From an uncultured Desulfobacterales bacterium (lineage in GTDB: Bacteria; Desulfobacterota; Desulfobacteria; Desulfobacterales; C00003060): a stretch of 64,000 bases of DNA. A program made the position numbers and the translations under genes. Every line of letters starts with the position of its first letter. Within the stretch, counting starts at the first letter, position 1. The stretch spans positions 24,007 through 88,006 of the forward strand of contig CAYSGJ010000017.1 in NCBI GenBank assembly GCA_964430705.1. Direction: 5' to 3'. Shown here piece after piece: positions 28,424-49,239 of this stretch. The notes under the pieces were generated by a model, which had not been told where the DNA came from, searched no databases, and worked only from the letters and a program-made list of their open reading frames with translations.

Positions 28424-28578
28424 AAAAAAAAGCCACGAAGTCACATCATCCCTTCTAGGATGCAAGCCTTCGTGGCTGGATTTGAGAAATTCCGAATCTA
28501 AATTGGTATTACCGGCAGTTTCTACCGCCGAGTTGCAAGTATATGCTCATATTTATCAGCCAAGCCCATACCTGTCAA
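28424..28578 (-). promoter_or_regulatory. Leader module i: promoter + AGAA-loop hairpin + terminator-like compound hairpin
   Basis: TTGACA (28578-28573)-17-TAAATA (28555-28550). Hairpin CGGCGGU-AGAA-ACUGCCG (28530-28513). AUCCAGCCACGAAGGCU..inner AUCCU-AGAA-GGGAU..CUUCGUGGCU plus U8 (28477-28424). Confidence 0.6.
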
Positions 28579-28840
28579 TGGAAAATCATGCCTTCCCCCC
28601 AAAAAAACGGTTGAAAAATAGCAGACAATGTCTAAAAAAATAACACTTTGGCATAAGCATGAAACATGTCAAACTGATTTCAATTTCATTATCGCACACT
28701 AACGAATTTAAGCTGCGGAAGCTGTCTTTTTCAGAAGAAAAGGAATCCTTGCGTGGCTTTATTGTTTTTGGCGCCGGGACCTGAGTAAATCGCGGAAGTG
28801 AACCTCGAAGGACATGATTTCAATTGGATACAGGAAGCCC

Positions 28841-29140
28841 ATGAAACCGATGAACGAGCAGGAAAAACTGAGAGTGCTTTTGGGTCACTGGGCGGCACAC
28901 AACCGTGAACATGCACAGGAATTTCGACGGTGGGCTCAGCGTGCCGGGCAGTTCGGGTCCGGCGATGCCGCCTCAGAACTTAAAAGCGCAGTACAAGAAA
29001 TGGAGCTGTTAAACAACAGCCTCCAGACCGCACTGGAAATGCTCAGGGCCCCCCTGGGAGACCACCATCATGATCACGACGTTATGCAAGCCGGCGGTGT
29101 CTTTATTGCCGATCCTGGCTATAAGCGCCGGATTTTATGA
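28841..29140 (+). CDS. Hypothetical helical protein with a His cluster (GDHHHDHD)
   Basis: ORF 28814..29140. Divergent from leader module i. No family recognised. Start uncertain (28814 or 28841). Confidence 0.4.
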   Translation: MKPMNEQEKLRVLLGHWAAHNREHAQEFRRWAQRAGQFGSGDAASELKSAVQEMELLNNSLQTALEMLRAPLGDHHHDHDVMQAGGVFIADPGYKRRIL

Positions 29141-29279
29141 TGCCCGGAGTATCCCTTTCTCGTTTTGGAATCGTCAGGTAGCTCCGACCGGCGCAACCTG
29201 ACCTACACTATTTATTTTAAACGACAAGGAACGCTCCGTGACGTTGTTTATTAAATTTGCCGGCGCAGCGCGATGGCCG

Positions 29280-29335
29280 CAAACCGCCCCGATTCAAACA
29301 ACGCGTTGTTTTATTCTAAAACTGAAAAAACATCG
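29280..29335. repeat. Left copy of a about 55-nt direct repeat flanking the vapBC cassette
   Basis: CAAACCGCCCCGATTCAAACAACGCGTTGTTTTATTCTAAAACTGAAAAAACATCG, compared with 30844..30931. Confidence 0.7.
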
Positions 29336-29429
29336 ATATCATTGGCTTGGATTTGCATCCAACGTCAAACTGTCGTTCGCAATTTAGACGGCATTCAGGG
29401 AGGTTGGCGTATGATTTGATTCGCGTGAA

Positions 29430-29880
29430 CTTGATGCATGGCTCAAGTGGCCGAACTGGAAACCGATGGTGCTCAGAGGCGTACGGCAGGTGGGAAAAAC
29501 GTGGCTTGTGCGGGATTTCGCCCAGAGGAACAAGCTTCGGCTGATTCAATCGAATGAAAAATTCTTCAAGGGCCTGATGCTGGATATCGGGCTCCGTTTC
29601 CACCATGCTCGGCCTTTCTTCGGTAGGACAGTCCCGCACTCAAATCATGGCTTTTGCAAATAAGGGGGGGCTGGCGGAACAGTTTGTCGGGCAACAATTG
29701 AGGGCGGCTCAGTCCCCATCACAGGATCCCCAGCTCTTTTACCGGCAAAGAACCGGCGGCCGCCAGGGTGAAATCGATTATGTCGTCCAGCATGGAAGTC
29801 ATATCATTCCCATCGAGGTAAAAGCCGTGGCCTCGGGAGGAATGAAATCCCTCCATCAATTCCTGTATGATGCCTTGACA
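29430..29880 (+). pseudogene. Remnant of an AAA+ ATPase (DUF4143-type) gene
   Basis: The P-loop piece VLRGVRQVGKTWLVRDFA joins directly to C-terminal pieces (..EIDYVVQHGSHIIPIEVKA..) in shifted frames. The N-terminus and middle are missing. Confidence 0.55.
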
Positions 29881-29897
29881 TTTCAGAACTTGATGCT

Positions 29898-30179
29898 ATG
29901 ATGCCTTTCATGAGAACAACACTGACCTTACAGGACGACCTGGCTCGAAAACTTCGTGAAAAGGCCCACCAGGAAGGCGTGTCTTTCAAGGAAGTCGTGA
30001 ATAATGCGATCAGGGAAGGTTTGAGCAGAATCGATCGACCCCAAAAAAATAAAAAACCGTATAAGTGCAAATCCTACAGCTTGGGTTATCCGCCCCGGGC
30101 TGCCCTTGACCACGCGCTGGAACTGGCAGACAGATTGGAATCAGAAGAGCTTGCGCGTAAATTACTGCTCAGAAAATGA
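29898..30179 (+). CDS. vapB: Type II antitoxin (VapB-like)
   Basis: MRTTLTLQDDLARKLREKAHQEG... is a typical short antitoxin. Its stop overlaps the start of the PIN gene. The start may be ATG 29910. Confidence 0.75.
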   Translation: MMPFMRTTLTLQDDLARKLREKAHQEGVSFKEVVNNAIREGLSRIDRPQKNKKPYKCKSYSLGYPPRAALDHALELADRLESEELARKLLLRK

Positions 30180-30604
30180 AACTCGTCGATATCAATCTGC
30201 TGATTTACGCCATCAATAAAGACACGCCCCATCATTCCAAGGCAAAGATTTGGCTGGAAGAGTCCCTGTCAAATGAGGAACCTTTTGGTTTCGCCTGGAT
30301 TGTGATTTTAGGTTTTTTGAGGATCGTCACAAATTCCAGAATCATGCCGGCTCCGCTTTCGCCCGAGCTTGCCATCGCTATTGTTGACGATTGGCTGCAA
30401 CAGCCGCCGTCGCTGACAGTTGTGCCATCACAACGGCACTGGTCCATATTGAAAGAATTGCTGCCGCCCCTTGGAACCGCCGCAAATTTAACCTCCGATG
30501 CCCATCTAGCTGCTCTGGCAATCGAGCACGGGGCCCGTCTCTATTCTACGGATAACGATTTCACCCGGTTTCAACCATTACGCTGGACAAATCCCTTGGA
30601 ATGA
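30176..30604 (+). CDS. vapC: PIN-domain toxin VapC
   Basis: MKLVDINLLIYA (first acidic residue), ...TSDAHLAALAIEHGARLYSTDNDF (PIN C-terminal acidic motif). Confidence 0.85.
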   Translation: MKLVDINLLIYAINKDTPHHSKAKIWLEESLSNEEPFGFAWIVILGFLRIVTNSRIMPAPLSPELAIAIVDDWLQQPPSLTVVPSQRHWSILKELLPPLGTAANLTSDAHLAALAIEHGARLYSTDNDFTRFQPLRWTNPLE

Positions 30605-30843
30605 CTGAGCCTTGCTCCAGAATGTCTTCAATGTAAAGGGAATCGAGCGACACGTTCTGGGCATTTTCAATATATAACGTTCTTCGAATTTCCACTTTTA
30701 ACGCTGAATATGTCCCTGTCGGCTGTAAGTGCGGCGGTTGAAAGAGGCGCAAGATTCGCCGCGGCGAACAACTATCTATTAACGGAAACCCTAAACATGT
30801 AAATCGAAAGAGAACGTCCCCAAAAGCCTGTGCACGATGGTCA

Positions 30844-30931
30844 CAAACCGACCCCACTCAAACAACGCGTTGAAATTTATATTTTTGACAATTTCAACGC
30901 GTTGTTTTATTCTAAAACCGAAAAAACATCG
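30844..30931. repeat. Right copy of the direct repeat, carrying an internal 15-bp inverted duplication
   Basis: CAACGCGTTGAAATT-N12-AATTTCAACGCGTTG is inserted relative to the left copy. Confidence 0.7.
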
Positions 30932-31189
30932 GCTTCGCAGTTCGCTTCAACGCCAATCCTCCAATGATTGAAAAAATAGACGTGAAAACAACATTGGGAC
31001 GGCCGGTTAAATACCGGCTGCTTTCATTGCCGCTGTATCTCGCCGGACGCCTCAACGCTCTCAGCGATTTGTATTACCAACCCGAATAAACGGGCGGCTT
31101 GCTGCACTTGTCCCATGGCAAGCAGTCAGCTTGCTGGTTGTCGTGGGCTCTCTATTTTTTCTTGCCTCCTTGATCGGATGTGAATACCG

Positions 31190-32594: not shown

Positions 32595-33455
32595 TTACTT
32601 TGCGCACTGCCCCATGATGACCAAACCCAGCCATTTCTCATCCATTGCCTTCAGGTCCTGTTCGATCTTTCCCAGGCTGCTTCTCAAGACCCGCTCCTTG
32701 TCCGGGTAACCGGCGTAATATACGACGGCGATCGGCAAATCGGGAGAATAGTGTTGACGAAATCTTTCCGCCGCCTTGCTCATGGACGAAAGGGACATAT
32801 ACAAAACCATGGTCGTCTCATATTTAGACAAGTCCTTGAGGATCTCGTCTCCCTTTTCCCATGACTCGCCGAACAGGGACTGCGGCGAGGTCAGCGCGAC
32901 AAACCGCACATCACTTGGCGTCACGGTGGTTTTGAGGGCCGCCGCCGCCGCATTAAAAGCGCCCATGCCCGGCACCACTTCGAACAGGTCGGCATCAAAC
33001 CCTTCCAGCAGATAGTGAAGGCTCGGCCCGTAGACACAGGGATCGCCGCCGTCCATCATGGCTACGGTTTTTCCCTCGCTCAGTTTTTCCATGATGAATG
33101 CCTGCACCTTGGCCACCCGTTCCTTCCTTTCGGCAACCGCCCCCTCCGGATCGCTTTTTTTATCCTTTTCGACTTCCTTTCCCATCACGCGTTTCCACGG
33201 ATCAAAGGCAACCTTCTTGGGATCGATGTGCGTACCGAATCGCGCGAAGCGTTCCGGCATTCTCGGGGAACAAAGGTAAACGTCCGCCTTTTCAACGACG
33301 GCCAGCGCGCGGGGCGCCGTCAGATCGGCTCCGGCCGGCCCCATACCCACCACATACAGCTTGCCCATCCTGCCGCTGAACGCACTGAATGGGAATATCA
33401 GAAGGACAAGAAAAGCAACAACCGGCGCCAAGAAAAAGCTCGGGAATTTTCTCAT
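32595..33455 (-). CDS. Exported tetrapyrrole-methylase-fold protein, paralogue 3
   Basis: ATG 33455. Signal MRKFPSFFLAPVVAFLVLLIFPFSAFS. Motifs LYVVGMGPAGA, MMDGGDPCVYGPS, VVPGMGAFNAAAAAL and VLYMSL. Confidence 0.7.
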   Translation of the reverse strand: MRKFPSFFLAPVVAFLVLLIFPFSAFSGRMGKLYVVGMGPAGADLTAPRALAVVEKADVYLCSPRMPERFARFGTHIDPKKVAFDPWKRVMGKEVEKDKKSDPEGAVAERKERVAKVQAFIMEKLSEGKTVAMMDGGDPCVYGPSLHYLLEGFDADLFEVVPGMGAFNAAAAALKTTVTPSDVRFVALTSPQSLFGESWEKGDEILKDLSKYETTMVLYMSLSSMSKAAERFRQHYSPDLPIAVVYYAGYPDKERVLRSSLGKIEQDLKAMDEKWLGLVIMGQCAK

Positions 33456-33511
33456 AAAGCGACCTTCTCTTTCCGGATCTCTTTGTTCATATGGATGTTG
33501 CAACACGGCTG

Positions 33512-34021
33512 TTACCGCCCATCCCGTTTTTTCATGGCTGTTCGGTTTTTCCAAAGATAAGCAATCGCACCAACGTTGAACATCAGGCTTAGTCCCAATG
33601 CGATTTTACCGGATTTTGAGGTTGGTCCGGATACCATCGCCTGCGTATCCTTATTGGGATGGACCGAGTCGGCCTGCTCGGTTGCATCCGGTGCGACCTC
33701 GATGACACCGCGCGCCAGGTGGCCCATGCCATCCTGGACCTCTATATGCCATGTGCCTGCCGTGTCCGGATAGAAAGCGAATCTGCCGCGACGATCGGTT
33801 CTTCCGTTTTGATATTCGACTTTTTCATCCAACGGACTGAACACGAGCACTTCGGCATACTGCATGGGTTCTCCGTCGGCATAATTGAACTCGGCTGTAA
33901 CGGCCCTGGCATCGTCCAAGACCCGATAGGCCGTTCCATGGGCGCCGGCAGCGGCGGCGCCGAAAAACACCAACGCCGGAATAACTCCGAACCAAACAAG
34001 ATATTTCATCACATTCTTCAT
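33512..34021 (-). CDS. Periplasmic Ig-like/carboxypeptidase-regulatory-like domain protein with a C-terminal membrane anchor
   Basis: Signal peptide, then a beta-sandwich-like segment (GRTDRRGRFAFYPDTAGTWHIEVQD), then a C-terminal TM (IALGLSLMFNVGAIAYLW). TAATG overlap with the upstream gene. Confidence 0.6.
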   Translation of the reverse strand: MKNVMKYLVWFGVIPALVFFGAAAAGAHGTAYRVLDDARAVTAEFNYADGEPMQYAEVLVFSPLDEKVEYQNGRTDRRGRFAFYPDTAGTWHIEVQDGMGHLARGVIEVAPDATEQADSVHPNKDTQAMVSGPTSKSGKIALGLSLMFNVGAIAYLWKNRTAMKKRDGR

Positions 34022-37040: not shown

Positions 37041-37202
37041 TAAAATAAAAAAGCCACGAGGCCGAATCATCCCTTCTAGGACGCGAGCCTTCGTGGCTGG
37101 ATTTACAAAATCGTGTGTTTAAAATTGCGCTGATCGGCGGTTTCTACCACCGGATTATAAGCATATGCTTATTTTTCTATCATCGGCATGGTCGTCTGTC
37201 AA
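37041..37202 (-). promoter_or_regulatory. Leader module ii
   Basis: TTGACA (37202-37197)-17-TAGAAA (37179-37174). 12-bp palindrome AAGCATATGCTT (37159-37170) at the predicted start site. Hairpin CGGUGGU-AGAA-ACCGCCG (37152-37135). Compound hairpin 37098-37052 plus a U-tract. Confidence 0.6.
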
Positions 37203-37508: not shown

Positions 37509-37732
37509 GCGGTTATGAGCCTCTTGTCGCATCTAATGATAACATTTGAAAATCGAACAACTTTCATCTCTGACAATATGAACGGTCGAACAACAACGTA
37601 TAAAAAAACACAGATGTGTTTAAAGCAACGCGAAAAAGTGGGCAGGTTTGACAATACGTCGGGCATGCATTAATTTTTTAAAATTATTGAATTCAACAAA
37701 GCAACCCCTTCCCACGAAAGGAGGACTTGGCG

Positions 37733-37996
37733 ATGAAAGGCACTCATGAACACGAACATCTGCACTCCCACGAACACACCCACCAACATGACCATGAACA
37801 CAATCACGGAGATGAAGTGCACATGCATGAACACGCCCACACCCATGTTCACGAGCACGAACACCAACACGCTCATGAACATGGCCACGGCGACGACGAG
37901 CACGTTCACGAACACAAACACACGGAAGGAGACCACGGATCGCATGAACACGTGCATCCAGCCCACGATTCAGAGGTGCACAAGCATTCACATTAG
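37733..37996 (+). CDS. Histidine-rich cytoplasmic protein (35 His in 87 aa)
   Basis: AAAGGAGG lies 8 nt before the ATG. No signal peptide. TTGACA-17-TAATTT promoter-like motif at about 37647-37675. A terminator follows. Confidence 0.75.
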   Translation: MKGTHEHEHLHSHEHTHQHDHEHNHGDEVHMHEHAHTHVHEHEHQHAHEHGHGDDEHVHEHKHTEGDHGSHEHVHPAHDSEVHKHSH

Positions 37997-38248: not shown

Positions 38249-38473
38249 TCAGACTTCGACCCATACCGTCTTTCTGTTGTCAGCATCCTTTTTGGAAGCC
38301 AGCCAATCCTTGCCGAGCCTCCTGCACCAGTCACGTACAGCCTTTTCAAAATTCGTGCAATCCCCCACGACTTGCAGGATATCGCCATGATGCATTTCCG
38401 CCGCCTTCATAGCTATCTGAAAGACCACTTTGGGATACCGCAGACCACTTGTATCGAGGACCTGGTTTTGCAT
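38249..38473 (-). CDS. TusA/SirA-fold protein lacking the catalytic Cys
   Basis: 74 aa. LDTSGLRYPKVV stands where TusA has LD-x-RGL-x-CP-x-P. GAGGAGGG lies 6 nt before the ATG. Confidence 0.65.
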   Translation of the reverse strand: MQNQVLDTSGLRYPKVVFQIAMKAAEMHHGDILQVVGDCTNFEKAVRDWCRRLGKDWLASKKDADNRKTVWVEV

Positions 38474-38890
38474 AGATGTCCCTCCTCAAAGACCAAGATT
38501 ATAGGCTTTGGTATTTTTCCTCCATCAGGCATCCTTTGGAGCGCTCCAAGAAAAAGGGGGAAAGGGTTTCCGGGATGCAGGTTTTCCTTTGCGCCACTGT
38601 CTCCCATGTCCGGGAACTGCGGGGTGATTCCGGAAACCTTTTTCCCCCGGTGTGGGTATGTTTGTTGCGACGTCTTTCCTTGTACTGTGCAGGGGGTTGG
38701 GGGAGCCGTGTCCATGCTGACGGAGGGTGTCTACTACCAGAAGGCAATTCTTGCAGTACTGCGCATTCTTTTTGACGGCCTGAGCCAAACGGACCTGTCG
38801 AAGCTGGAAAAGGCATTGGCAAAAAGTGTTGCGATTATCCATCTGCGTTACTCCACCCAACCCCTGCACCCGGGTGTGTATCCCATCGTT

Positions 38891-39035
38891 TTTCCGGTGG
38901 CCCTCAACGCGGCACCAACGCGGCAAGGGCGACCGGGGTTAAGGAGGTGATGGGGGTGAACAAACGACCCGGTCCGGGAAAAACCAAAAAAAAAGCCAGG
39001 GGTCTCAGGCATTCCGCCTGTCGGCCTTCCTGGCT
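38891..39035. repeat. Repeat A (paralogue of 42882..43031): hairpin + perfect SD + GTG small ORF + compound hairpin
   Basis: Shared string TTyCCGGTsGCCC..CGCGGCACCrACGCGGCA..GCGACC..AAGGAGGTGA..GTGAAC..CCsGG..GGGAAAA..AAAAAAAGCCAGGGGTCTCAGGC.TTC.GCCTGT..GCCTTCC.GGCT. Confidence 0.7.
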
Positions 39036-39041
39036 TTTTTT
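38986..39041. terminator. Bidirectional terminator-like compound hairpin, downstream of TonB-dependent receptor 3
   Basis: A9-AGCCAGG...inner CAGGC-ATTCC-GCCTG...CCTGGCT-T7. Confidence 0.6.
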
Positions 39042-39253
39042 ATTATTTAATACTGAGTCAATAACTACTGTGGATCACATCTTCATGATGTAAACACACT
39101 TTAATGTAAAATTGCGGCGATGTCAAGGATTAGTTTGTCGATGTTTACAAAAAACGCATACGACAATGATCAAAAGTTCGCACGTCCTACTCCTCGTCCA
39201 GAAAAAAACACCAACAGGTTGTCCCGGCCAGCAACACCAATTCGCTACCTTAA

Positions 39254-41302
39254 CTAGAAGTCGTACATGACGGTCACATAATATGATCGAGCATTGCTGC
39301 CGGCGTATTGATTTTCACCTGACCAATAACTGACAAACTCGGAATAGGTTTCGTCAGTCAGGTTCTTAACATCGAAAGAAACCGTCCACTTTTTCCCCAG
39401 GGACTGTATTACCTTTACGTCTAAAGTCTCGTAACCTTCGTAGGAGTTGTCGTTCGTGGCATTCGTGTACCATTCCCCCACATCGTTGTACCAGGCACGA
39501 ATCTGTGTTGACTCCCAAGGCAGTGTGTATTGAGCCCCCAGTTTCCAGATATACTCAGGAATATGGGCCAGTTCCTTTCCCTCATTGGGGCCTGTTTCAT
39601 ATTCTGCGTCATAGATTGTATAGGAGGTAAATAACTCAAGACTATGCCATGGAATGGCATTGACCTCGAATTCATGTCCCTTGCGCCTTGCATCGCCCTG
39701 GCTCACCCATTCGCCGTTCACCAAAGCCAACCCGTCCTCTTCCTGATCGAAATAAGCATAGCGAAACAGCAGCCAGTCCCAAGGCTCACCCTTAAGACCT
39801 ATTTCCCAGAAAAAGTAGTCTCTTTCATCGGGCGCATTTTCCGCGTATTTAGCCGTTCCAGACGGAAGCGCAAACGTGGTTGCTGCATTGGCATAGAAGC
39901 TGTATTTTTCGACGGGTGTGACGATAAGGCCGCCCTTGTAGGTTGTAACGTCGTAATCTTTCATATCGCGCTGAACGCCGGTCTCCCAATTTGTTGTCTC
40001 TCCGGTGAACCAGTCATGACGAATTCCAGCGAAAAGCCGAAGAACCTTGAACGGATCATAGTTGGCCTTCAAATACGTTCCGTAATTGATAAAATCAAAA
40101 TCCCCGTTGTTAGAACTTCCGGCGACCAAGCTGTCCCGACGGCGTGCCGTCGTGTTCCAATTTTCGCCGTGGCTCTCAAAAGATCGATAGTCAAACCCCA
40201 CGTCCAGCCGTAGCGCCTGTTCTGGCGCCGGCTCAAGATCCCAACCAAAATTCGACAAAAAACCGTAGGTCTCATTATCAAAATAGCTTTCCGTTTGTCC
40301 GCCTCCCCAATCCGCGTATCTCGCATAAGTATCGTGGATGCCCCAAGCTTTGGCGGTTAAAACCTTGTCTGATGCAATATTCCAATCAAGGTGAAGAGAA
40401 CCCTCTGTCAGATCCTTGTAGCCGCCGTCATCCTCGGACGTAGGAATGCTTTGCCTTGGATTCTGTTTCCAATAGCTCTCGGGTAGATAGCCGGCAGTCT
40501 CCCAATCCGCGTCGTAAACGTGGGTATGCAGACCGATTTGAAGTTCGTCGGAGGGACGATAGTACCATTTGGCATATGCGTTCTGCCGTTCTCGATCGGC
40601 ATCGTCTCTCCAGCCTTCTGCCGTGTAGTATTCCAGCGAATAGACTTGGTTGAACTTGCCGTCGAAGTGTTCTGTCCCTAAGGAAGCATAGGCCTTCTTG
40701 TGGTCCCAGCTTCCATAAGAAACCTTGGCCTTTTGGAAATCCCCGCGAGTGCGCGTGTGCAGATGCAGAACGCCGCCTCGGCTCCAGTTCCCGTAACGTG
40801 CATCAATTGGGCCTTTGATCAATTCCAGACGATCGACCTCCTCGGGAGTGAGTTGATTGAGATCGGGGGCCCCGTCTGCCGATCCCAAGTGTGAGTTAAT
40901 GGGAATACCATCTATGGTGACAACAGTATGGTTTCCATGGCTATTCGAATCGTATCCCCGAAGCGTGAATCCGTTGGGGACCCCGCCATTTCCGTAATCA
41001 CCGATAGTAATTCCGGGAATTTTGCGGAGCAATTCCAACGAATTATCAAGATTTTCATGTTTAACCTCATCCCATCCCAACACATCGACCGAACCGGGCA
41101 GGTCGACGTTTCTGATAGCATCTTTCCTATCTCGGATAACAACCTCTCCGATATTCATAAAGACTTCTCCTGAACCAGGGCGAAGCTCTTCCAATGCCTT
41201 CGTTTCCTGATCGCTTTTTACGGCTTCTTCAGACCGGACGTTTGAAACACTCAAAATGCAGACTATGGAAACGATAAGACTCATAAAAACGGTCTTGTTC
41301 AT
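39254..41302 (-). CDS. TonB-dependent receptor 3
   Basis: Signal peptide, plug (PGSVDVLGWDEVKHENLDNSLELLRKIPGITI), 22-strand-size barrel, C-terminal ...YVTVMYDF. Confidence 0.85.
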   Translation of the reverse strand: MNKTVFMSLIVSIVCILSVSNVRSEEAVKSDQETKALEELRPGSGEVFMNIGEVVIRDRKDAIRNVDLPGSVDVLGWDEVKHENLDNSLELLRKIPGITIGDYGNGGVPNGFTLRGYDSNSHGNHTVVTIDGIPINSHLGSADGAPDLNQLTPEEVDRLELIKGPIDARYGNWSRGGVLHLHTRTRGDFQKAKVSYGSWDHKKAYASLGTEHFDGKFNQVYSLEYYTAEGWRDDADRERQNAYAKWYYRPSDELQIGLHTHVYDADWETAGYLPESYWKQNPRQSIPTSEDDGGYKDLTEGSLHLDWNIASDKVLTAKAWGIHDTYARYADWGGGQTESYFDNETYGFLSNFGWDLEPAPEQALRLDVGFDYRSFESHGENWNTTARRRDSLVAGSSNNGDFDFINYGTYLKANYDPFKVLRLFAGIRHDWFTGETTNWETGVQRDMKDYDVTTYKGGLIVTPVEKYSFYANAATTFALPSGTAKYAENAPDERDYFFWEIGLKGEPWDWLLFRYAYFDQEEDGLALVNGEWVSQGDARRKGHEFEVNAIPWHSLELFTSYTIYDAEYETGPNEGKELAHIPEYIWKLGAQYTLPWESTQIRAWYNDVGEWYTNATNDNSYEGYETLDVKVIQSLGKKWTVSFDVKNLTDETYSEFVSYWSGENQYAGSNARSYYVTVMYDF

Positions 41303-41339: not shown

Positions 41340-42122
41340 CTATTTCACCTCGATCATCATGTATGGCCGATAGTTCTCAAAGTCAGCATGCGGGCTGGCC
41401 GGGGTGTCAAACTCATACTTGGCATAAACCAACCATTTTCCGGCACGGCTCAACTTGACCTCTGCAATACCGTTTTCCTTTGTGGTTGTCTTCACGGGCT
41501 GATCAGAATGATCCTTCGGTTTGTACCCCTCGTAGATGCCGAATACCGGCACATCTGCAACAGGCCGGCCTTGGTACAGGACCAATATAGGGAGTATTTG
41601 TCCCACTTTGAGCTCTGTCGGGTTCTTTTGCGGGATTATTTCTATCGTGTGCCCCAACAGCATTTTGTAAGAATCCGTTGGGCGTTCTACGGTGACAAAG
41701 CTTTTAACCGATTTGACGTATTTGCCGGCCTTCAATACATTTTCATGTTCACTCTTGCGGCCTGTCTTCCAACCATCCGTGGTTTGGCAAAAATATCCAG
41801 GAGCTGTGGATGCTGCACTGATCACATAGGTTCCGGGTCCAGCCAAGGGGATTGATATCCATGCCGCTTTTGCTTCGACTCTAGAATAGGATAAGGGTAT
41901 TTCTCGATTTTGGGGGGTGACCATGCTGATACGATACTTGGAAATATCAGGCACTTCTTCCAGGTCAAAATAATGATGACCTTGTGTAAAGGCTGCTTCC
42001 GTGACATCGTTGCCTTTGTGCCGGAATGATTCCGGCATGATCCAATAGTCGTGTCCCCAAACTGACGGGACTGTCCACAGGACGACCAGCAAAACCAGAA
42101 CGCCCCATTGCGTGATTTTCAT
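41340..42122 (-). CDS. DUF4198-type periplasmic protein, paralogue c
   Basis: Signal, then GHDYWIMPESF. 260 aa. It is followed after 37 nt by receptor 3. Confidence 0.7.
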   Translation of the reverse strand: MKITQWGVLVLLVVLWTVPSVWGHDYWIMPESFRHKGNDVTEAAFTQGHHYFDLEEVPDISKYRISMVTPQNREIPLSYSRVEAKAAWISIPLAGPGTYVISAASTAPGYFCQTTDGWKTGRKSEHENVLKAGKYVKSVKSFVTVERPTDSYKMLLGHTIEIIPQKNPTELKVGQILPILVLYQGRPVADVPVFGIYEGYKPKDHSDQPVKTTTKENGIAEVKLSRAGKWLVYAKYEFDTPASPHADFENYRPYMMIEVK

Positions 42123-42414
42123 CTATTTTCTCCTTTCTGAAAAATGAAAGAGACCGGTCAGGTCGCTATGATGACCTGAACAAATTCAGCTTTAACGAAT
42201 TCGTTGCTCGCAGGCACTTGAAGAGAAAACGGCTTGAAGGCGGGATGCCAAGATGATATGAATAACTACGAAGCATCCCTCCATCCGAGGGGGCTTTACT
42301 GGGAGGGCAGCGTGCGACTTTCGCCGGTGGCAGCTGCCTTCCCGACCCTTTTTTCTATGCCTGGTTTTGACCTCGACGTGTGTTGATCACCCCCTTTCTT
42401 CATTTTATTGCCAC
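42123..42414 (-). promoter_or_regulatory. Structured 5' leader domain (type-2), homologous to 28143..28423
   Basis: AAAGGGGGUGAU; GGGAAGGCAGC/GCUGCCCUCCC helix; AAGCCCCCUCGGAUGGAGGGAUGCUUCG; GGGAUGC/GCAUCCC helix. Confidence 0.55.
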
Positions 42415-42572
42415 AAAAAAAGCCACGAAGACATCGTATCCGTTCTCGGATGACAGCCTTCGTGGCCTTGGATTGTGCGGCGAACTCTAAACGCTATAAA
42501 AAATCGACATTTTGCAGCTTCTGCTGCAACAATTCATATCAACTCAATAGTATTTATTTCGACTGTAGTCAA
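42415..42572 (-). promoter_or_regulatory. Leader module iii
   Basis: TTGACT (42572-42567)-17-TATTGA (42549-42544). Hairpin UUGCAGC-AGAA-GCUGCAA (42529-42512). AUCCAAGGCCACGAAGGCU..AUCCG-AGAA-CGGAU..CUUCGUGGCU plus U7 (42467-42415). Confidence 0.6.
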
Positions 42573-42881
42573 TAGAAAAATTTACACTCGTATTTTTAGG
42601 CCTCGGAATTTGTCAGGAAGAAGAACCCAACTGCAACAATTGCCGCAAGGCTTGTGACAGTGTCTTTTTGTCGTGGCTCGCCAATCGGCCTGTTTTGCTC
42701 AAAACCAACCGATGATCCAGCGTAAAAAGCTTCATCCGCACCTTGGAATCGGCTTTCAATCAAGCTTTCCGTTTGTCGGTGATTGCTGTGTCGAGAGGCT
42801 GGTCGGGATTCCTCTGACTGGTGATCATGGCAAGCACCACGTGACCGCTTGCTATGTTGAACATCTTTGGATCTGACCTTG

Positions 42882-43031
42882 TTTCCCGGTCGCCCCCACC
42901 GCGGCACCGACGCGGCAGGAGCGACCTGGAGTAGAAAGGAGGTGAGAAAGTGAACCAGAAAAAACCTGGCCCGGGAAAACCACAAAAAAAGCCAGGGGTC
43001 TCAGGCGTTCTGCCTGTAAGCCTTCCCGGCT
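42882..43031. repeat. Repeat B (paralogue of 38891..39035)
   Basis: See repeat A. SD AAGGAGGTGA at 42936-42945. GTG 42950 opens a 35-codon ORF, MNQKKPGPGKPQKKPGVSGVLPVSLPGFWLCSCVS. Confidence 0.7.
42984..43031 (-). terminator. Terminator-like compound hairpin downstream of the methyltransferase gene
   Basis: Minus strand: AGCCGGGAAGGCU..CAGGC-AGAAC-GCCUG..CCCCUGGCU plus U7. Confidence 0.55.
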
Positions 43032-43154
43032 TTTGGTTGTGCTCCTGTGTCAGCTAATGTTGCGTGCATCATACGAGGCATCTTCATGATGCCTACGCTC
43101 TATGAAATCAGCAATGTCATCAAATTCCGAACAAGTGTCTTGATCGTGACGTTA

Positions 43155-43859: not shown

Positions 43860-43871
43860 ATTTGCCCAAAT

Positions 43872-44005
43872 AAAAAAGGCCACGAACCCCACCTTCAGGT
43901 GGATAGCCTTCGTGGCCTGGATGTTATGTCTATGGATTTTGTGTTCAGGACCCTTCAGTGGTCCGTTTAATATTCAGATATACTGAGCAAAACCTATGCC
44001 ATCAA
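43872..44005 (-). promoter_or_regulatory. Leader module iv
   Basis: TTGATG (44005-44000)-17-TATATC (43982-43977). Hairpin GGACC(A)C-UGAA-GGGUCC (43964-43948). AUCCAGGCCACGAAGGCU..CCACC-UGAA-GGUGG..UUCGUGGCC plus U6 (43917-43872). Confidence 0.5.
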
Positions 44006-44360: not shown

Positions 44361-45083
44361 CTACGTCAGCTCGAAGACGATGGTCAGCTCCAAGGGGATC
44401 TCCCCCTCAAAAAAGCGTCGCGGGGGCTTGGAAAAGGGCGCGGCGGCCTGCACGGCTCTTAAAGCGGCGGCATCGAGATCCTTGTTTCTCGAATGCCTTG
44501 TAATTTCCAACTGTCGAACAGCGCCGTCCGGCGTGATCACAAAGCGGATCGTCACCCGGCCTTCGATATTCCTCACCCTGGCCAGGTCGGGATATTTCTT
44601 GTGCCGTTCTATCTTGAGCCTCACCATCTCAAGATAGTTCTGGGCGGTTGCAAAATCGCCCCCCGCGTCGTCCACCAGTGCGCCGGGCGCCCAGTCCGCC
44701 ATCGCAAGGCCCGGGGTGTCCGGTATGTCCGGCATGGCAATGCCTTCCACCAGGCCGTCCGGAAGGTTTTTCTCAGGAGGTTCCATCTTGATCGGTCTTA
44801 GCCGGGGCACCTGCCGCTGGATGACATTGAGCTTTTTTACTTCCTGCACCTCAGGGGTCTTGGGCCTGAATCGGGGCCTGGGAATATCTCGTACGGACGG
44901 TTTGGACATATCGTGCATGGTCAGCTCTATGTAGGTCAAGACACTGGAGTTGTACAAGCCCGTAACATGCATGAAAATGAAGGCATGAATCACCAGAGAA
45001 ACGCCGATGAGGCCTCGAAAGAGCCAGTTAGGTCTATTAGACACAGATTTCGCAGATTCCACGGATTTAGGGTTACCTGACAT
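44361..45083 (-). CDS. tonB: Energy transducer TonB
   Basis: N-terminal TM (LFRGLIGVSLVIHAFIF), Pro-rich spacer (RPRFRPKTPE...PRLRPIKMEPPEKNLP), and a C-terminal TonB domain (GRVTIRFVITPDGAV...). Confidence 0.85.
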   Translation of the reverse strand: MSGNPKSVESAKSVSNRPNWLFRGLIGVSLVIHAFIFMHVTGLYNSSVLTYIELTMHDMSKPSVRDIPRPRFRPKTPEVQEVKKLNVIQRQVPRLRPIKMEPPEKNLPDGLVEGIAMPDIPDTPGLAMADWAPGALVDDAGGDFATAQNYLEMVRLKIERHKKYPDLARVRNIEGRVTIRFVITPDGAVRQLEITRHSRNKDLDAAALRAVQAAAPFSKPPRRFFEGEIPLELTIVFELT

Positions 45084-45387
45084 TGTCAAATATTTTTCGT
45101 TTGACCTGAACGGAAGGACCGAAGTTAATGAGCAAACCCACCTCTATTCCGGTTGCTTTGAGATAGTTCACCAATTGCACTTCGTGGATTTCAGCCAGAT
45201 CTTTGACCGCTTTCAATTCAAGAATCACCTTGCCTTCCACAATGGTGTCTGCTGAATAATCACCTACGATTTGACCCTCATAATACACCCTAATGGCCTT
45301 TTCGTTTTCGACTTGCAATCCGATTTTATTGAGTTCAAGGATGAGAGCATTCTGATAAACCTTCTCCAGAAATCCAAAACCCAGCAC
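45073..45387 (-). CDS. GxxExxY-family small protein without a canonical start codon
   Basis: GFGFLEKVYQNAL...KAV..L..IHEVQLVNYLKATG. The frame extends upstream (..IKHSHLTEKIIRAAFSVHNVLG) to a TAA with no ATG/GTG/TTG, next to a G8 run. Confidence 0.55.
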   Translation of the reverse strand: MLGFGFLEKVYQNALILELNKIGLQVENEKAIRVYYEGQIVGDYSADTIVEGKVILELKAVKDLAEIHEVQLVNYLKATGIEVGLLINFGPSVQVKRKIFDNVR

Positions 45388-45515
45388 GTTGTGAACTGAA
45401 AAGGCTGCCCTGATTATCTTTTCGGTAAGATGCGAATGTTTGATTGGCCCCCCCCGTTTTCTTTATGCGGATTGCATCGATTCTCAGAAATCCGCGTAAT
45501 CTGTGGAATCCGTGT

Positions 45516-45923: not shown

Positions 45924-45963
45924 CTACAACCTCCTCAAAAGAAATCTCCAGTAAGCTCGTGGC

Positions 45964-45981
45964 ACGAATATCAATATTCGT
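45964..45981. promoter_or_regulatory. 18-bp perfect palindrome in the exbB-exbD spacer
   Basis: ACGAATAT-CA-ATATTCGT, inside an unusually long (166 nt) exbB-exbD gap. Confidence 0.4.
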
Positions 45982-46089
45982 ATTTCGAATTTTTCAATGA
46001 GCATTTCAACACAACATAGCCTCAACTTTGCCCGCACTATCTCCTTCTGTTTTGCCCTTTGCCTTATGCTCTTTGCCCTAAGCTGTTTT

Positions 46090-46749
46090 CTAATGCGCAT
46101 GGCTGTGAGAGTGCTCATGGGTGTGAAGCCCGTTGTGTCCGTGGATCCGGTAGCCGATGGCCTTGACGAACACCACGGCGCCGTCTTGCAGCTGGGCTTC
46201 ATATGTGTCTACACGGGCAACCAGATAACTGTGAGCCACCATGACGGGAAGAGCCACCGCCAGCCCAAGGGCGGTCGTCAACATGGCTTCCCAGATTCCC
46301 CCTGCCAGCACGGCGGCATTGACTTTGCCGCCCATTTCCTGAATCACCATGAAGGCCTTGATCATACCCAGAACCGTACCGAGAAGGCCCAGCAGCGGGG
46401 CGATATTGCCGATGGTAGCCAAGGCCTGGAGATAGCGGGAAAGCTCCCGCGTTTCCTTTTCCGTGGCGTGCACAATGACGGTTTCCAGGGTTTCCCGGTC
46501 CTGGTCTTTTACCTCCATAGCGTGTGTCAAAACCCGTCCCATGGGTTTGTCGTCGGCGCTGGCCAGGTCATACGCCTTCTGGTCTTCGCCGTTTTTCAAG
46601 TATCGCCCCACCTTTTCCACCAATCCGTAGCCCCGTATCTTGACGCGGCTGAAACGGATAAGTCGCTCTAAAAAGATGGCCAGCGCCAACACCGAACACA
46701 ATAAAATGGGTCCCACAAGGACCCCGCCCTTTGCAAGAAAATCGAACAT
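46090..46749 (-). CDS. exbB: MotA/TolQ/ExbB proton channel with a His-rich C-terminal tail
   Basis: ATG 46749 after GGAGG. Three TM segments, with the GNIAPLLGLLGTVLGMI motif. Tail ...RIHGHNGLHTHEHSHSHAH. Confidence 0.88.
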   Translation of the reverse strand: MFDFLAKGGVLVGPILLCSVLALAIFLERLIRFSRVKIRGYGLVEKVGRYLKNGEDQKAYDLASADDKPMGRVLTHAMEVKDQDRETLETVIVHATEKETRELSRYLQALATIGNIAPLLGLLGTVLGMIKAFMVIQEMGGKVNAAVLAGGIWEAMLTTALGLAVALPVMVAHSYLVARVDTYEAQLQDGAVVFVKAIGYRIHGHNGLHTHEHSHSHAH

Positions 46750-46840
46750 GGTTAGCCTCCGGACTCTGAGAAAGTAAGCAGGTGCGAAAGTGAGAAAGCG
46801 TGAGATAAAAACAGCGTTTTCCAATTATCGCCCGCGGTGT

Positions 46841-47241
46841 TTATATTTCTTCGTTTTTCTGTTTTTTCATCAGCCAAGGTTTTGGGTCGTTTCCCATGAC
46901 AACCAGTTTTCCGATAATGTGATCATAAGCTTTGTGGAGGTCTTTTCCTACCTTTCGTTCATATATTTACACCTCACGGCATACTCCAGCCAAACCTGGG
47001 GCTCCGCCGCTTCACTCTCTGATTCATTCAGTTTATTCACAAAGGCCCTTTCGTATTTCCTTCTTCTCCAAGCCTCAGCGATTGCAGAAGAAACAGCACG
47101 AGATGACCGACGTATTTGATCGGTTAACGAAAACAACTCTTCCTTTGGGAAACCCTTTGACAACTCGTATATTTCCATCGCTGACACCACAGACATCTTG
47201 TATACATCCAAGTCCCAGTGATGCTGTATCTTTTTACTCAC
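46841..47241 (-). pseudogene. Four-helix-bundle (23S rRNA intervening-sequence protein-like) gene with a frameshift
   Basis: ORF 46948..47241 stops at ..KYMNER. Another frame continues with KVGKDLHKAYDHIIGKLVVMGNDPKPWLMKKQKNEEI, the expected C-terminus of the family. Confidence 0.6.
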
Positions 47242-47279
47242 CCCTTCTCACTTTCCCACCTGCTTACCGACCAACCGGC

Positions 47280-49046
47280 TCACGGTTCCGTCTGCGCCAC
47301 ATCTTCAACGTCCGGTGTCCCGTCATAATTCAGGTCCCTTGACCTTTTGATCAGGGCTTCCGCCTTATCGTATTCCTCCCATAGATCGGGTTTTCCGTCC
47401 CCGTTGGTGTCCTCCTCTACGGCCACAAGACTGCCCTTTTCGTAGTAATACCATGTGTCCACCTCCCCGTCGCCGTTGTTGTCTTTTTCCGCCCGGACGG
47501 CTTCTTCGTCGTCATTGTAGAACCAGACGATGGTGAAACGGCCCGCGCCCTGGTCGTCTTCTTCGCTCTTTTCCAGCTTTCCCTGCGGGCTATAATGCTC
47601 TCTCAGGTCCGGCTTTCCGTTGCCGTTTCCGTCGATTTCTTTTAATCTCAACACGCCGTCTTTGTGGTAGTAACGGCCTTCGGGCCTTCCGTCTCCGTCC
47701 GCATCCAACTCCATGACCATGTCCCACGGGGGCCTGTTGAACCACTGGGTGATTTCAAAATGCCCGTCCCCGTCCTGATCCCGGATGAGGCGCTGTTTGA
47801 CGCCCTTTTCGTAGTACACCTTAAGATCCACCGTGCCGTCGCCGTTTTCGTCTCGTTCCGCCCGGACGAGTTCTTGATTGATAAAAAACTCCCAGGCATC
47901 GATTTTTCCATCCAGATTCGTGTCGCTTTCCACCCGCTCCTTTTCTTCCTTGGCATTGAAAAAGATCGTCACATCCGGTTTTCCATCCTTGTTGCGGTCC
48001 TGCGTTTGTTGAAACATTTTTCCTTTTTGGAACAAGGTGACGGTTTCCATGAAACCATCGCCGTCGGAATCGTAAACGACCGTTGTCGGTTCCCCGTCCC
48101 GGTAGGTCCGGATCCGGTCGATGCGGCCCGTATGCCTAGTGTCTTCCTCCATCTTTTCGGGATATCCCTTGGCGTCAAAACGGATAAACACGTCGTCCTT
48201 TCCGTCAAAATTCGTGTCTTTTTCCTGGTGCGACGGCAGTCCTTCCTTGAAATAAGTCACGATGTCAAAGCGGCCGTCTCCGTTGGAGTCCCTTTTCTGT
48301 TTGACCGGCTTGCCGTCTTCAAACAGGGTGATGATCTCGAACTTTCCGTCCTTGTCTTCGTCTTTTCTCTGCTCGACCAGATCGCCCGCCCGATACAAAC
48401 GCACGACTTCCATGAAACCATCGCCGTCCAAATCGTGGAGGCTCTTTTTCGGAAGGCCTTCATCGTCGTACAGGGTAATGCTGTCGATATTGCCGTCGCC
48501 GTCATCGTCCGTGCGCCGTTCGACGGGTTTATCGTCTTTATAGGTTTGCCAGACGTTCACCTTGCCGTCTCCGTTGGCATCCTTGGTGGACCGGACCAGC
48601 TTTCCTTCTTCAAAATAATACAGGGCGTCAAAACGGCCGTCCAAGATAGTGTCCCGTTGCATCTCCAGGGGCCGCTCTTCGGGGTCAAACAGGATGACCA
48701 GCTCCAGCCGGCCTGCGTCTTCATCTGCGCGTTCATGTCGGATCCTTTTGCCGTTTTCAAAAAAATCCCACGCGTCAATTTTCTGATCGTGGTTTCTATC
48801 GCTTTCAATTTTTGAAATTACTTCATTGGAATAGTGCTGAAACCGGTCCATGAAGCCGTCCCCATTGCTGTCTATTTCGAGCTTCACCAACTTGCCCTTT
48901 TGATCGAAATGGGCAATTTGATCGATTTGGCCGTCGTCGTTTGTGTCCCGTTCTATGGGTTTTTTCCCGGCTGAGGCCGACCATGGAGAAAGTACGAGAC
49001 AACATATCAAAAAAAATGAACAAACGCTTTTCATGACGATATACAT
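47280..49046 (-). CDS. Exported protein with 23 tandem about 24-aa repeats, each carrying a Dx[DN]xDGxx[DE] loop
   Basis: Signal ...FFLICCLVLSPWSASA. Repeats such as DSNGDGFMD, DANGDGKVN, DDDGDGNID, DTNGDGKPD. Start is 49046, 49034 or 49058. Confidence 0.8.
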   Translation of the reverse strand: MYIVMKSVCSFFLICCLVLSPWSASAGKKPIERDTNDDGQIDQIAHFDQKGKLVKLEIDSNGDGFMDRFQHYSNEVISKIESDRNHDQKIDAWDFFENGKRIRHERADEDAGRLELVILFDPEERPLEMQRDTILDGRFDALYYFEEGKLVRSTKDANGDGKVNVWQTYKDDKPVERRTDDDGDGNIDSITLYDDEGLPKKSLHDLDGDGFMEVVRLYRAGDLVEQRKDEDKDGKFEIITLFEDGKPVKQKRDSNGDGRFDIVTYFKEGLPSHQEKDTNFDGKDDVFIRFDAKGYPEKMEEDTRHTGRIDRIRTYRDGEPTTVVYDSDGDGFMETVTLFQKGKMFQQTQDRNKDGKPDVTIFFNAKEEKERVESDTNLDGKIDAWEFFINQELVRAERDENGDGTVDLKVYYEKGVKQRLIRDQDGDGHFEITQWFNRPPWDMVMELDADGDGRPEGRYYHKDGVLRLKEIDGNGNGKPDLREHYSPQGKLEKSEEDDQGAGRFTIVWFYNDDEEAVRAEKDNNGDGEVDTWYYYEKGSLVAVEEDTNGDGKPDLWEEYDKAEALIKRSRDLNYDGTPDVEDVAQTEP

Positions 49047-49063
49047 ATAACCTAACAATCTAT

Positions 49064-49239
49064 AAAAAAAGGCCAGGATGGAATGACAGACTTCCTGTCT
49101 GCAAGCCTTCCTGGCCCGTGTTTATTTTTCCGATAAAAATAAAATTAGATGAAAAAAACCTTATGCACCTTCTGGTGCAGTTTTTCAGTCTTTACAACGA
49201 ATCCATGGCATTGTACATGCAGAAGACAGAGGATGTCAA
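49064..49239 (-). promoter_or_regulatory. Leader module v
   Basis: TTGACA (49239-49234)-18-TACAAT (49215-49210). Hairpin UGCACC-AGAA-GGUGCA (49179-49164). GGCCAGGAAGGCU..GACAG-GAAGU-CUGUC..UCCUGGCC plus U7 (49116-49064). Confidence 0.55.

Follow-up and report, generated by a model that had tools for sequence, protein, structure and literature searches.

ANTAR antitermination relies on a dimeric protein that contacts two hairpin loops and keeps the second hairpin folded in competition with the terminator; in the eut leaders, the targets of EutV, the linker between the hairpins measures 5-12 nucleotides (nt), and a 20-nt extension abolishes antitermination (PMC3369931, PMC8934654). A leader RNA that appears to follow the same logic in a structurally distinct form is described here from an uncultured Desulfobacterales bacterium (GenBank assembly GCA_964430705.1, contig CAYSGJ010000017.1, positions 24,007 to 88,006 of the forward strand), this whole stretch of 64,000 nt being called the window. 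Seven modules of the element occur in the window, all on the minus strand, as established by reading of the regions, RNA folding and a covariance model. Their parts are, in order, a TTGACA-type promoter, a hairpin with a loop ending in GAA (HP1), an A/U-rich spacer of about 40 nt and a compound terminator with the 5' arm GCC-ANGAA-GGY (N, any base; R, purine; Y, pyrimidine). It is confirmed that the modules represent a real and widespread family of RNA leaders. On balance, they would be cis-acting transcription-attenuation leaders of a nickel/cobalt-type uptake regulon, switched on by factor-dependent antitermination.

Sulfate reducers and other anaerobes use nickel and cobalt in hydrogenases, carbon monoxide dehydrogenase and corrinoid enzymes, and sulfide makes these metals scarce. 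To our knowledge, the control of nickel and cobalt acquisition in Desulfobacterales is poorly known. Cis-acting leader RNAs of nickel/cobalt or corrinoid homeostasis genes are represented by the NiCo (czcD) riboswitch and the cobalamin riboswitches, the latter controlling btuB, cbiM and btuF-type genes, similar to the genes found here; the NiCo riboswitch, however, has a four-way junction and controls exporters. The Rfam 15 models of Cobalamin, NiCo and mini-ykkC gave no match in the window, where no Rfam 15 family matched at the gathering threshold over the 64 kb, and at E<=10 only spurious microRNA (miRNA) and SymR matches appeared in the region 26000-51000. The same search does detect canonical cobalamin riboswitches in two related loci, L026 (6441-6628, plus strand) and L093 (7458-7644, minus strand), the second preceding a periplasmic-type CbiK gene. 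Since both stand beside operons with a GAA-loop leader, this leader is separate from B12 control. The searchable literature (DUF4198 and DUF3842 riboswitches, Desulfobacterales candidates, nik/cbi RNA motifs and orphan riboswitches) contained no description of the family, which is apparently undescribed within reach of this literature and Rfam 15. The element is thus a conditional-terminator leader with competing hairpins, a kind of system already known, in a form that is new.

A preliminary description of this DNA had reported five copies (i to v), and every one of them is present at its position on the minus strand. As it had proposed in outline, each of the five has a TTGAC(A/T) or TTGATG box separated by 17-18 nt from a TAnnnn box, an upstream hairpin of 5-7 base pairs (bp), with an AGAA loop in copies i, ii, iii and v and the loop ACUGAAG in copy iv, and a compound hairpin that starts with GCC(A/G)(C/G)GAAGGC, bears an AGAA, UGAA or GGAAGU loop at its tip and is followed by a U6-U8 tract. 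Two further hairpins (38994-39035 and 42990-43031) were correctly assigned to the same family, but they are not mere hairpins at the 3' ends of genes, because both are full modules with an upstream GAA-loop hairpin, named vi and vii here. The features are given below in the numbering of the 64,000-nt window, the modules being read as minus-strand RNA; bit scores are those of the covariance model R1, and the 11-mer is the beginning of the terminator 5' arm.

28424-28578, minus strand: module i, 94.6 bits; -35 box TTGACA (28573-28578), -10 box TAAATA (28550-28555); downstream, a second leader of about 280 nt, a TonB-dependent receptor (split, 26079-28142), TP_methylase, DUF4198 and TP_methylase
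28513-28530, minus strand: HP1 of module i, CGGCGGU-AGAA-ACUGCCG
28424-28476, minus strand: compound terminator of module i, -24.5 kcal/mol; arm and mini-hairpin GCC-ACGAA-GGC (28466-28476), tip AUCCU-AGAA-GGGAU (28448-28461), 3' arm and U8 (28424-28440)
37047-37202, minus strand: module ii, 87.4 bits; -35 box TTGACA (37197-37202), -10 box TAGAAA (37174-37179); downstream, an operon of a TonB-dependent receptor, DUF4198, a NikL-like 169-aa protein and TP_methylase
37135-37152, minus strand: HP1 of module ii, CGGUGGU-AGAA-ACCGCCG
37047-37097, minus strand: compound terminator of module ii, -26.5 kcal/mol; 11-mer GCCACGAAGGC (37087-37097), tip UCCU-AGAA-GGGA (37070-37081), 3' arm and U6 (37047-37062)
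42415-42572, minus strand: module iii, 92.6 bits; -35 box TTGACT (42567-42572), -10 box TATTGA (42544-42549); downstream, a second leader of about 290 nt, DUF4198 (41340-42122) and a TonB-dependent receptor (39254-41302)
42512-42529, minus strand: HP1 of module iii, UUGCAGC-AGAA-GCUGCAA
42415-42467, minus strand: compound terminator of module iii, -27.3 kcal/mol; 11-mer (42456-42466), tip AUCCG-AGAA-CGGAU (42438-42451), 3' arm and U7 (42415-42430)
43872-44005, minus strand: module iv, 40.4 bits (outside the seed); -35 box TTGATG (44000-44005), -10 box TATATC (43977-43982); downstream, a class I S-adenosylmethionine-dependent methyltransferase starting at about 43859
43948-43964, minus strand: HP1 of module iv, GGACC-ACUGAAG-GGUCC
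43872-43917, minus strand: compound terminator of module iv, -24.1 kcal/mol; 11-mer (43906-43916), tip CCACC-UGAA-GGUGG (43889-43902), 3' arm and U6 (43872-43886)
49064-49239, minus strand: module v, 82.9 bits; promoter 11/12, -35 box TTGACA (49234-49239), -10 box TACAAT (49210-49215); downstream, a 588-aa repeat protein (DUF6802-like) and an exbB-exbD-tonB operon
49164-49179, minus strand: HP1 of module v, UGCACC-AGAA-GGUGCA
49064-49116, minus strand: compound terminator of module v, -28.7 kcal/mol; 11-mer GCCAGGAAGGC (49105-49115) with a C-to-G change compensated in the 3' arm, tip GACAG-GAAGU-CUGUC (49085-49099), 3' arm and U7 (49064-49079)
38986-39126, minus strand: module vi, 41.6 bits (outside the seed); own promoter TTGACA-17-TAAAGT, 10/12, -35 box 39121-39126, -10 box 39098-39103; HP1 ACAUC-AUGAA-GAUGU (39077-39091), 11-mer GCCAGGAAGGC (39024-39034), tip CAGGC-GGAAU-GCCUG (39006-39020); downstream, a TusA-like gene (38249-38473) about 520 nt away
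42984-43093, minus strand: module vii, 36.3 bits (outside the seed); HP1, spacer and terminator; HP1 GGCAUC-AUGAA-GAUGCC (43077-43093), 11-mer GCCGGGAAGGC (43020-43030), tip CAGGC-AGAAC-GCCUG (43002-43016)

RNA folding of the copies recovers both structures, with z-scores of -3.3 to -5.6 against dinucleotide shuffles. The compound hairpins have the properties of intrinsic terminators, namely an outer stem of 8-11 bp, a folding energy of -20 to -29 kcal/mol and a tract of U6-U9 next to it, this tract being invariant among the 92 members of an alignment fitted to the model (A7). The 11-mer GCCRSGAAGGC occurs exactly eight times in the window, on the minus strand every time, and with up to one mismatch 18 times against 5.7 expected, a number reached in 0 of 100 shuffles. 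The eighth exact occurrence (50625-50635) was discarded, as it lies inside an 82-aa minus-strand open reading frame (ORF), has no terminator structure or U-tract behind it and is missed by model R1.

R1 was built on an alignment (A6) of four copies from the window and seven from other genomes, and the covariance-model search suggested in the preliminary description, carried out with R1 over the 64 kb with filters off, returns exactly the seven copies. Modules iv, vi and vii are recovered although absent from the seed, at 36-42 bits and E-values of 5e-5 to 4e-4, and the next match (28647-28763, plus strand; 23.6 bits, E 0.06), without convincing hairpins, looks like chance. A simple promoter and terminator scanner found the promoters of modules v and vi only and no compound terminator, for which its own rules on loop size and -10 box are responsible. 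Some 60 nt separate the stop codon of the methyltransferase gene from module vii, which lies between this gene of module iv and module iii. No convincing promoter of its own was found upstream, and module vii is therefore probably an internal attenuator. The distance of 13-75 nt from the U-tract to the gene start given earlier is corrected to about 12 nt (iv), 17 nt (v) and about 80 nt (ii), according to the gene calls of the same sequence in the Mono Lake sediment metagenome contig MLSed_10000745, a sequence also present in further assemblies; the nearest genome to the window in the searched collections has about 77% nucleotide identity.

Beyond the window, one genome per GTDB species was scanned with a pattern of the terminator only (reverse complement of the 5' arm, gap, 3' arm and A-tract), giving at least 119 genome loci for a rough chance expectation, by our own estimate, of about 7. 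The comparative counts of HP1, tip loops, genes and alignments given below rest on loci among the matches listed, unless the protein-anchored sample is named. Most of these matches show the whole module, from the TTGACA box through the GAA-loop hairpin, spacer and terminator to a ribosome-binding site and gene, and their hosts are overwhelmingly Desulfobacterota, comprising Desulfobacterales (Desulfosarcina widdelii, D. cetonica, Desulfoluna butyratoxydans), Desulfatiglandales, Syntrophobacterales and Desulfobaccales, with some Nitrospirota/Thermodesulfovibrionales and few Bacillota; a handful in other phyla are probably due to chance. The bias of an RNA pattern was removed in a sample of 80 metagenome loci retrieved solely through a NikL-like periplasmic protein by alignment search. 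In this sample, about 24 distinct loci have modules recognised by R1 (E<0.01), and nearly all of these modules precede the gene on the same strand. Considering the loci with a full 6 kb upstream, a module is present in about 13 of 25.

HP1, defined as a hairpin of at least 5 bp with a loop ending in GAA within 130 nt upstream of the terminator, is found in 91 of 129 instances, compared to 10.7% of shuffled upstream regions, with AGAA (22), AAGAA (16), AUGAA (11), UGAA (8), ACGAA (6) and AGGAA (6) as its loops. All seven pairs of the stem vary on both sides in the 92-member alignment and 91% of the cells are paired, these counts leaning towards structure as the alignment was fitted to the model, with a large margin: the score for covariation amounts to 0.445, compared to 0.129 in shuffles, none of 500 reaching it, and at most 0.10 with slid partners. 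The stem sequence is unconserved except near the loop, A(N)GAA, where the closing pair is Y-R (CG 50, UA 14, UG 5, GC 1) and the pair two below is R-Y. As the stems differ between copies while pairing is kept and all seven pairs covary, HP1 bears the mark of an RNA structure and not of a DNA-binding site. It begins 9-14 nt past the -10 hexamer, thus at the 5' terminus of the transcript, and 46 of the 56 clear cases have a perfect TTGACA as their -35 box. The spacer between HP1 and the terminator has a median length of 41 nt and a range of 10-112 nt, and its columns are A/U-rich with less than 0.8 bit of information, mostly less than 0.3.

A further sequence, AGCATATRCTT, had been noted at the predicted start site of copies i and ii, and it is present in both, on the minus strand between the -10 box and HP1 (28540-28552 and 37160-37171), forming the 12-bp palindrome AAGCATATGCTT in copy ii. 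In these two copies the gap from the -10 box to HP1 is about 8-10 nt longer than usual. At that position the sequence occurs in no related locus, and its role as a conserved operator is rejected because only copies i and ii of the window carry it; it may be either a lineage-specific operator or the mark of a recent duplication.

The 5' arm of the terminator has the consensus AA-GCC-A-N-G-A-A-G-G-Y, where N is free to vary, with compensating changes in the 3' arm (CG 77, GC 11, UA 2, AU 1), while GCC and GG are invariant, including the copies not selected by the pattern and the protein-anchored sample; GCCAUGAAGGU, GCCAAGAAGGC, GCCAGGAAGGU and GCCACGGAGGC are examples. GCC-ANGAA-GGC fits the form of the top of HP1, that is R-N-Y, a loop ANGAA and R-N-Y, and the arm alone can fold as a mini-hairpin of 3-4 bp with -3.5 to -4.4 kcal/mol, counting the flanking A and U. 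This mini-hairpin and the terminator (-20 to -29 kcal/mol) exclude each other, because the former uses the first eleven bases of the 5' arm. Positions 9-11 of the arm (GGC, with Y at the last base in the consensus) are invariant in the 92-member alignment, whereas pairing of the arm in the terminator drops past position 6, position 8 being paired in 63% of the members and positions 9-11 in about 80%.

Some variants speak for the mini-hairpin. Locus L123 has GUC-AUGAA-GAC, both changes together keeping the small hairpin, and in L007 three mini-hairpins stand in a row (GCC-AUGAA-GGC, GCC-GUGAA-GGC and GUC-AUGAA-GAC). The mini-hairpin of L089 and L079, GGUC-AUGAA-GGCC, is located on the 5' side of the terminator, and only GGCC, its 3' half, is common to it and the 5' arm, a layout in which the two structures would directly exclude each other. 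The tip of the terminator bears a GAA loop in 63 of 135 members, with a loop spectrum like that of HP1, whereas 9% of the unrelated terminator-like hairpins in these loci have one. The view that no upstream RNA could act as an antiterminator was borne out when the nascent RNA of 90 members was folded without the 3' arm: only 1.16 nt of the arm were paired upstream, against 2.23 in shuffled controls. Since the arm pairs upstream less than in these controls, the RNA encodes no antiterminator besides the mini-hairpin, which may supply the missing one.

Regarding the genes behind the element, they lie downstream and on the same strand as the module in the great majority of cases. The first downstream genes (n=76) belong, by Pfam, to DUF4198 (11), TonB-dependent receptors (9), class I methyltransferases (6), CbiM (4), Phenol_MetA_deg porins (4), DUF6802 (4), DUF3842 (3), FmdE (3), Peripla_BP_2 (3), OprB porins (3) and SBP_bac_5 (2). 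Clustering of the ORFs of the loci adds ATP-binding cassette (ABC) ATPases in 29 loci, a small periplasmic protein related to NikL (NCBIfam) in 19, CbiQ in 15, ExbB in 14, TonB in 12, ExbD in 11 and a NikA-like binding protein in 9, CbiO being also part of the regulon. In Nitrospirota, the motif precedes CbiM-PDGLE, porins, TonB and a methyltransferase, and in Bacillota an energy-coupling factor (ECF) S-component and a methyltransferase with FmdE. One characterised member of DUF4198 is a periplasmic zinc-capture protein (PMC12663993). Because of these coherent gene classes and of the characterised DUF4198 member, the regulon most plausibly serves the acquisition of transition metals, nickel and/or cobalt. 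The possibility raised earlier of a generic repeat scattered without relation to leaders is excluded, as the comparative data tie the element to the 5' leaders of one functional gene class.

As suggested by sequence comparison, on which all functional statements about the leader rest, the mode of action could be as follows. The strong promoter with its perfect -35 box would fire and HP1, with its R-N-Y/(A)NGAA/R-N-Y top, would be transcribed first, then the unconserved and unstructured A/U-rich spacer of about 40 nt. On emergence, AA-GCC-ANGAA-GGY could fold as the mini-hairpin of about -4 kcal/mol or, about 30 nt later, serve as 5' arm of the terminator of -20 to -29 kcal/mol, and RNA left alone would terminate, making OFF the default state. 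A trans-acting factor is proposed because the design, with a promoter, a default terminator and repeated hairpins of which one competes, is the logic of ANTAR-type antitermination; it would keep the mini-hairpin closed, block the terminator and let the polymerase read into the uptake genes. Most likely, this factor would be an RNA-binding protein, dimeric or oligomeric, that recognises GAA-loop hairpins (HP1, the mini-hairpin and often the terminator tip) and, probably active under metal limitation, would bind HP1 on its emergence and then capture the mini-hairpin within about 30 nt, before the 3' arm appears.

The likeness to the ANTAR leaders (the targets of EutV, NasR and AmiR) comprises a pair of small hairpins, here HP1 and the mini-hairpin, whose purine-rich loops are sequence-specific and whose closing pair is conserved, a second hairpin of 3 bp that overlaps the 5' arm and excludes the terminator, termination by default and the possibility of several such terminators in one gene cluster. 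The ANTAR 13-mer AGC-AANGRR-GCU is likewise similar to GCC-ANGAA-GGC, one to one except for one loop base (PMC3369931). However, ANTAR targets have hexaloops with A1 and G4 (PMC3369931), while the loops here are (A)NGAA of 4-5 nt and always the pentaloop ANGAA in the arm; their linker measures 5-12 nt, compared to 10-112 nt here (median 41 nt); and a third GAA-loop hairpin, often present at the terminator tip, as well as the fixed position of HP1 at the transcript 5' end, set the present element apart. The genes differ too, being those of nitrogen or ethanolamine metabolism in ANTAR systems and of metal uptake here. A canonical ANTAR target was rejected on loop size and linker length, and the best reading is that the element has an ANTAR-like logic but fails the defining features of ANTAR. 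No ANTAR-domain gene was found among the recurrent gene families of about 200 loci or the annotated parts of the window.

The sites A(N)GGA of CsrA/RsmE are also short hairpins with an ANGxA pentaloop, and ANGAA is one base from ANGGA. The CsrA homodimer bridges two sites tens of nucleotides apart and would tolerate a variable spacer. However, the defining GGA is replaced by GAA in nearly all loops of the present family, the AGGAA loops and an ACGGA arm in two copies of L148 being the exceptions, and CsrA mainly occludes ribosome-binding sites, where the hairpins described here are not located.

Several observations speak against factor-dependent antitermination as outlined above. About 30% of the instances have no detected HP1, and about half of the members lack a GAA loop at the tip. 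A spacer of 10-112 nt would be difficult to reconcile with a rigid dimer. As the mini-hairpin keeps its GCC/GGC pairing almost without change, its covariation support comes from a handful of variants, and the G10-to-A change of L123 pairs in the terminator too. No candidate RNA-binding protein encoded locally was found when the ORFs of 120 loci were clustered and those upstream of 145 modules were considered, the only recurrent regulator being a DNA binder of the DtxR family at 4 of the 145 upstream positions. Finally, metal limitation as the putative signal is deduced from gene content alone, and it leaves the methyltransferase, FmdE and DUF3842 genes of the regulon unexplained.

The absence of a travelling regulator gene would be accounted for by a protein-free riboswitch, a new class in which two or three (A)NGAA-loop hairpins gather round a small ligand or metal ion and, sensing nickel/cobalt status or a reporting metabolite, control importers, either by stabilising the mini-hairpin (ON switch) or by locking the terminator through a contact between HP1 and the tip (OFF switch). 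The recurrence of the same gene classes in Desulfobacterota, Nitrospirota and Bacillota is a spread typical of riboswitches, and purine-rich loops could offer N7 ligands to nickel or cobalt. Nevertheless, the very strong default terminator and the lack of an antiterminator in the apo state leave a metal-OFF switch nothing to switch from, metal-ON logic would be wrong for importers, and the conserved positions are few and confined to the tops of simple hairpins, with free lengths of loop (4 or 5 nt) and spacer. A precedent for tandem hairpins exists in guanidine-II (mini-ykkC), which likewise has small hairpins with a conserved tetraloop, a C-G closing pair and an unconserved linker of variable length, its two ACGR loops closing round the ligand. 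However, the ACGR loops are self-complementary and kiss, whereas the (A)NGAA loops are not and a kissing complex is not obvious, and guanidine-II acts on translation with hairpins outside any terminator. For these reasons, a riboswitch, although the main rival, is regarded as unlikely. The fixed, promoter-proximal position of HP1 would also suit a processive antitermination, where it would be a boxB- or put-like loading site modifying the polymerase, with or without a factor, so that the downstream terminator is ignored, and the arm would be conserved for another reason. In lambda N-boxB and HK022 put, too, terminators are preceded by a small hairpin that lies near the promoter and has a purine-rich pentaloop, and tandem or internal modules do occur here within one transcription unit (vii then iii in the window; L023, L055, L119 and L157). 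But boxB loops are GNRA-like (GAAAA or GAAGA), and these phage systems have no conserved terminator arm; the invariant 5' arm, its match to the top of HP1 and the variants whose mini-hairpin half-overlaps the terminator would all be left unexplained, and a module of its own directly before the gene in each operon is more typical of local attenuation, making this reading improbable.

With a promoter and a strong terminator, each module makes up a complete transcription unit, and its 5' hairpin, A/U-rich single strand and U-tailed terminator resemble Hfq-dependent small RNAs (sRNAs). The modules could thus be genes of independent trans-acting sRNAs of about 100-130 nt, the downstream genes being expressed only by leaky read-through or from other promoters; the distance of 400-520 nt from modules vi and vii to the next gene would fit. 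This alternative, raised earlier as sRNAs of about 100-140 nt with read-through, is weakened since the spacer, low in information and variable in length, has no conserved single-stranded seed of the Hfq type; in addition, most copies stand 10-100 nt ahead of a co-directional gene that has a ribosome-binding site of its own and lacks another promoter, and seven near-redundant sRNAs in 21 kb would be odd, so that sRNA genes are quite improbable. A reading without regulatory RNA, by which the modules are a genomic repeat, an ordinary terminator family or, in the case of HP1, a repressor operator at +3 to +20, could draw on the seven repeats on one strand within 21 kb and on an inverted repeat just past the -10 box, a frequent operator site. 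It conflicts with the covarying stems of HP1, with the association of the element with one gene class and with the sense strand of the downstream gene, and with the lack of GAA loops in unrelated terminator-like hairpins of the same loci, and it appears largely refuted and very improbable. Factor-dependent antitermination through the mini-hairpin is then the account retained here as probable.

Thus, the element appears to head, in hundreds of genomes, most operons of the regulon, with outer-membrane receptors, TonB machinery, periplasmic capture proteins and ECF/ABC importers, and gives a well-defined new family of regulatory RNA with cultured hosts (Desulfosarcina widdelii, D. cetonica and Desulfoluna butyratoxydans). 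It also offers a handle on co-regulated proteins of unknown role, such as DUF4198, DUF3842, FmdE-like proteins, class I methyltransferases and DUF6802-like repeat proteins. Either way, a new RNA-binding antiterminator or a new riboswitch would be there to be discovered: a protein would represent a family of hairpin-loop-binding antiterminators unrelated to ANTAR, and a riboswitch would be the first RNA sensor governing nickel/cobalt uptake, in contrast to the exporter switch NiCo.

Regarding DUF3842, this protein of about 142 aa with a conserved IDGQGGGIG motif recurs inside regulated operons, usually after the NikL-like gene (L022, L026, L044, L047, L063, L064, L079, L080, L111 and L116; for example, L026:5586-6014). 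It was rejected as the candidate factor, having no informative PDB relative and no NCBIfam name and being encoded for the most part within these operons; it may be a metal chaperone. An APC-family permease (AA_permease_2) is encoded at the end of operon i (21088-22482, minus strand) and, in many metagenome loci (L148-L190, about position 4630-6010), immediately upstream of the gene for the NikL-like protein, and may be the inner-membrane transporter of the uptake system. Three paralogous genes of the tetrapyrrole-methylase type (TP_methylase; 23161-24117, 24977-26074 and 32595-33554, minus strand) lie within the receptor-DUF4198 operons, with weak similarity to CobM/CbiF and CobA and an N-terminal extension, being unusual partners in metal-uptake operons. 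The TonB-dependent receptor behind module i is split into 26733-28142 (plug and start of the barrel) and 26079-26522 (end of the barrel) on the minus strand, which indicates a frameshift or stop, from a pseudogene or an assembly error.

Two genes interrupt the operon behind module v on the minus strand, a 23S_rRNA_IVP (four-helix-bundle) gene (46948-47241) between the 588-aa repeat-protein gene and exbB, and a PDDEXK_3 gene (45073-45387) between exbD and tonB. Between modules ii and vi, a divergent gene (37727-37996, plus strand) encodes an 89-aa protein made nearly entirely of His, Glu and Asp (HEHEHLHSHEHTHQHDHEH...), with no Pfam match, likely to be a metal-binding or storage protein judging from this composition.

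Directly after the terminator, copies i and iii carry a second leader, conserved and structured (28143-28410 and 42123-42400, minus strand), seen in at least six other loci (L026:1570-1900, L035:1722-1975, L056, L062:4791-4980, L107 and L199:1546-) and mostly ahead of TonB-dependent receptor genes. It comprises, in this order, AAAGGAGGUGAU, a perfect Shine-Dalgarno-like box, followed by a variable stretch, the hairpin GGGAAGGCAGC...GCUGCCUUCCC and then GGUGAAGCCCCCUCGGG, UGAGGGAUGCCUCG, AUCAUCCC and GUCAA, and in the consensus fold the box pairs with CAUCCC about 170 nt downstream. It has no Rfam match and seems to be a further undescribed RNA motif of this regulon. The first stretch of about 110 nt past the terminators of modules vi and vii (38880-38985 and 42880-42983, minus strand) is conserved between these two copies and was not found in other loci; it contains on the minus strand AUCACCUCCUUA / CUCACCUCCUUU, a mimic of the 16S rRNA 3' end that is complementary to the Shine-Dalgarno-like box of the second leader, and on the plus strand AAGGAGGUGAU, then a short basic ORF. 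Lastly, a near-perfect long inverted repeat, AAACAACGCGUUGAAAUU...AAUUUCAACGCGUUGUUU (30848-30922), the source of a false miRNA match in Rfam, is situated about 250 nt downstream of a PIN-domain gene (30176-30604) that belongs to a PIN / DUF4143 pair (29605-30604, plus strand).

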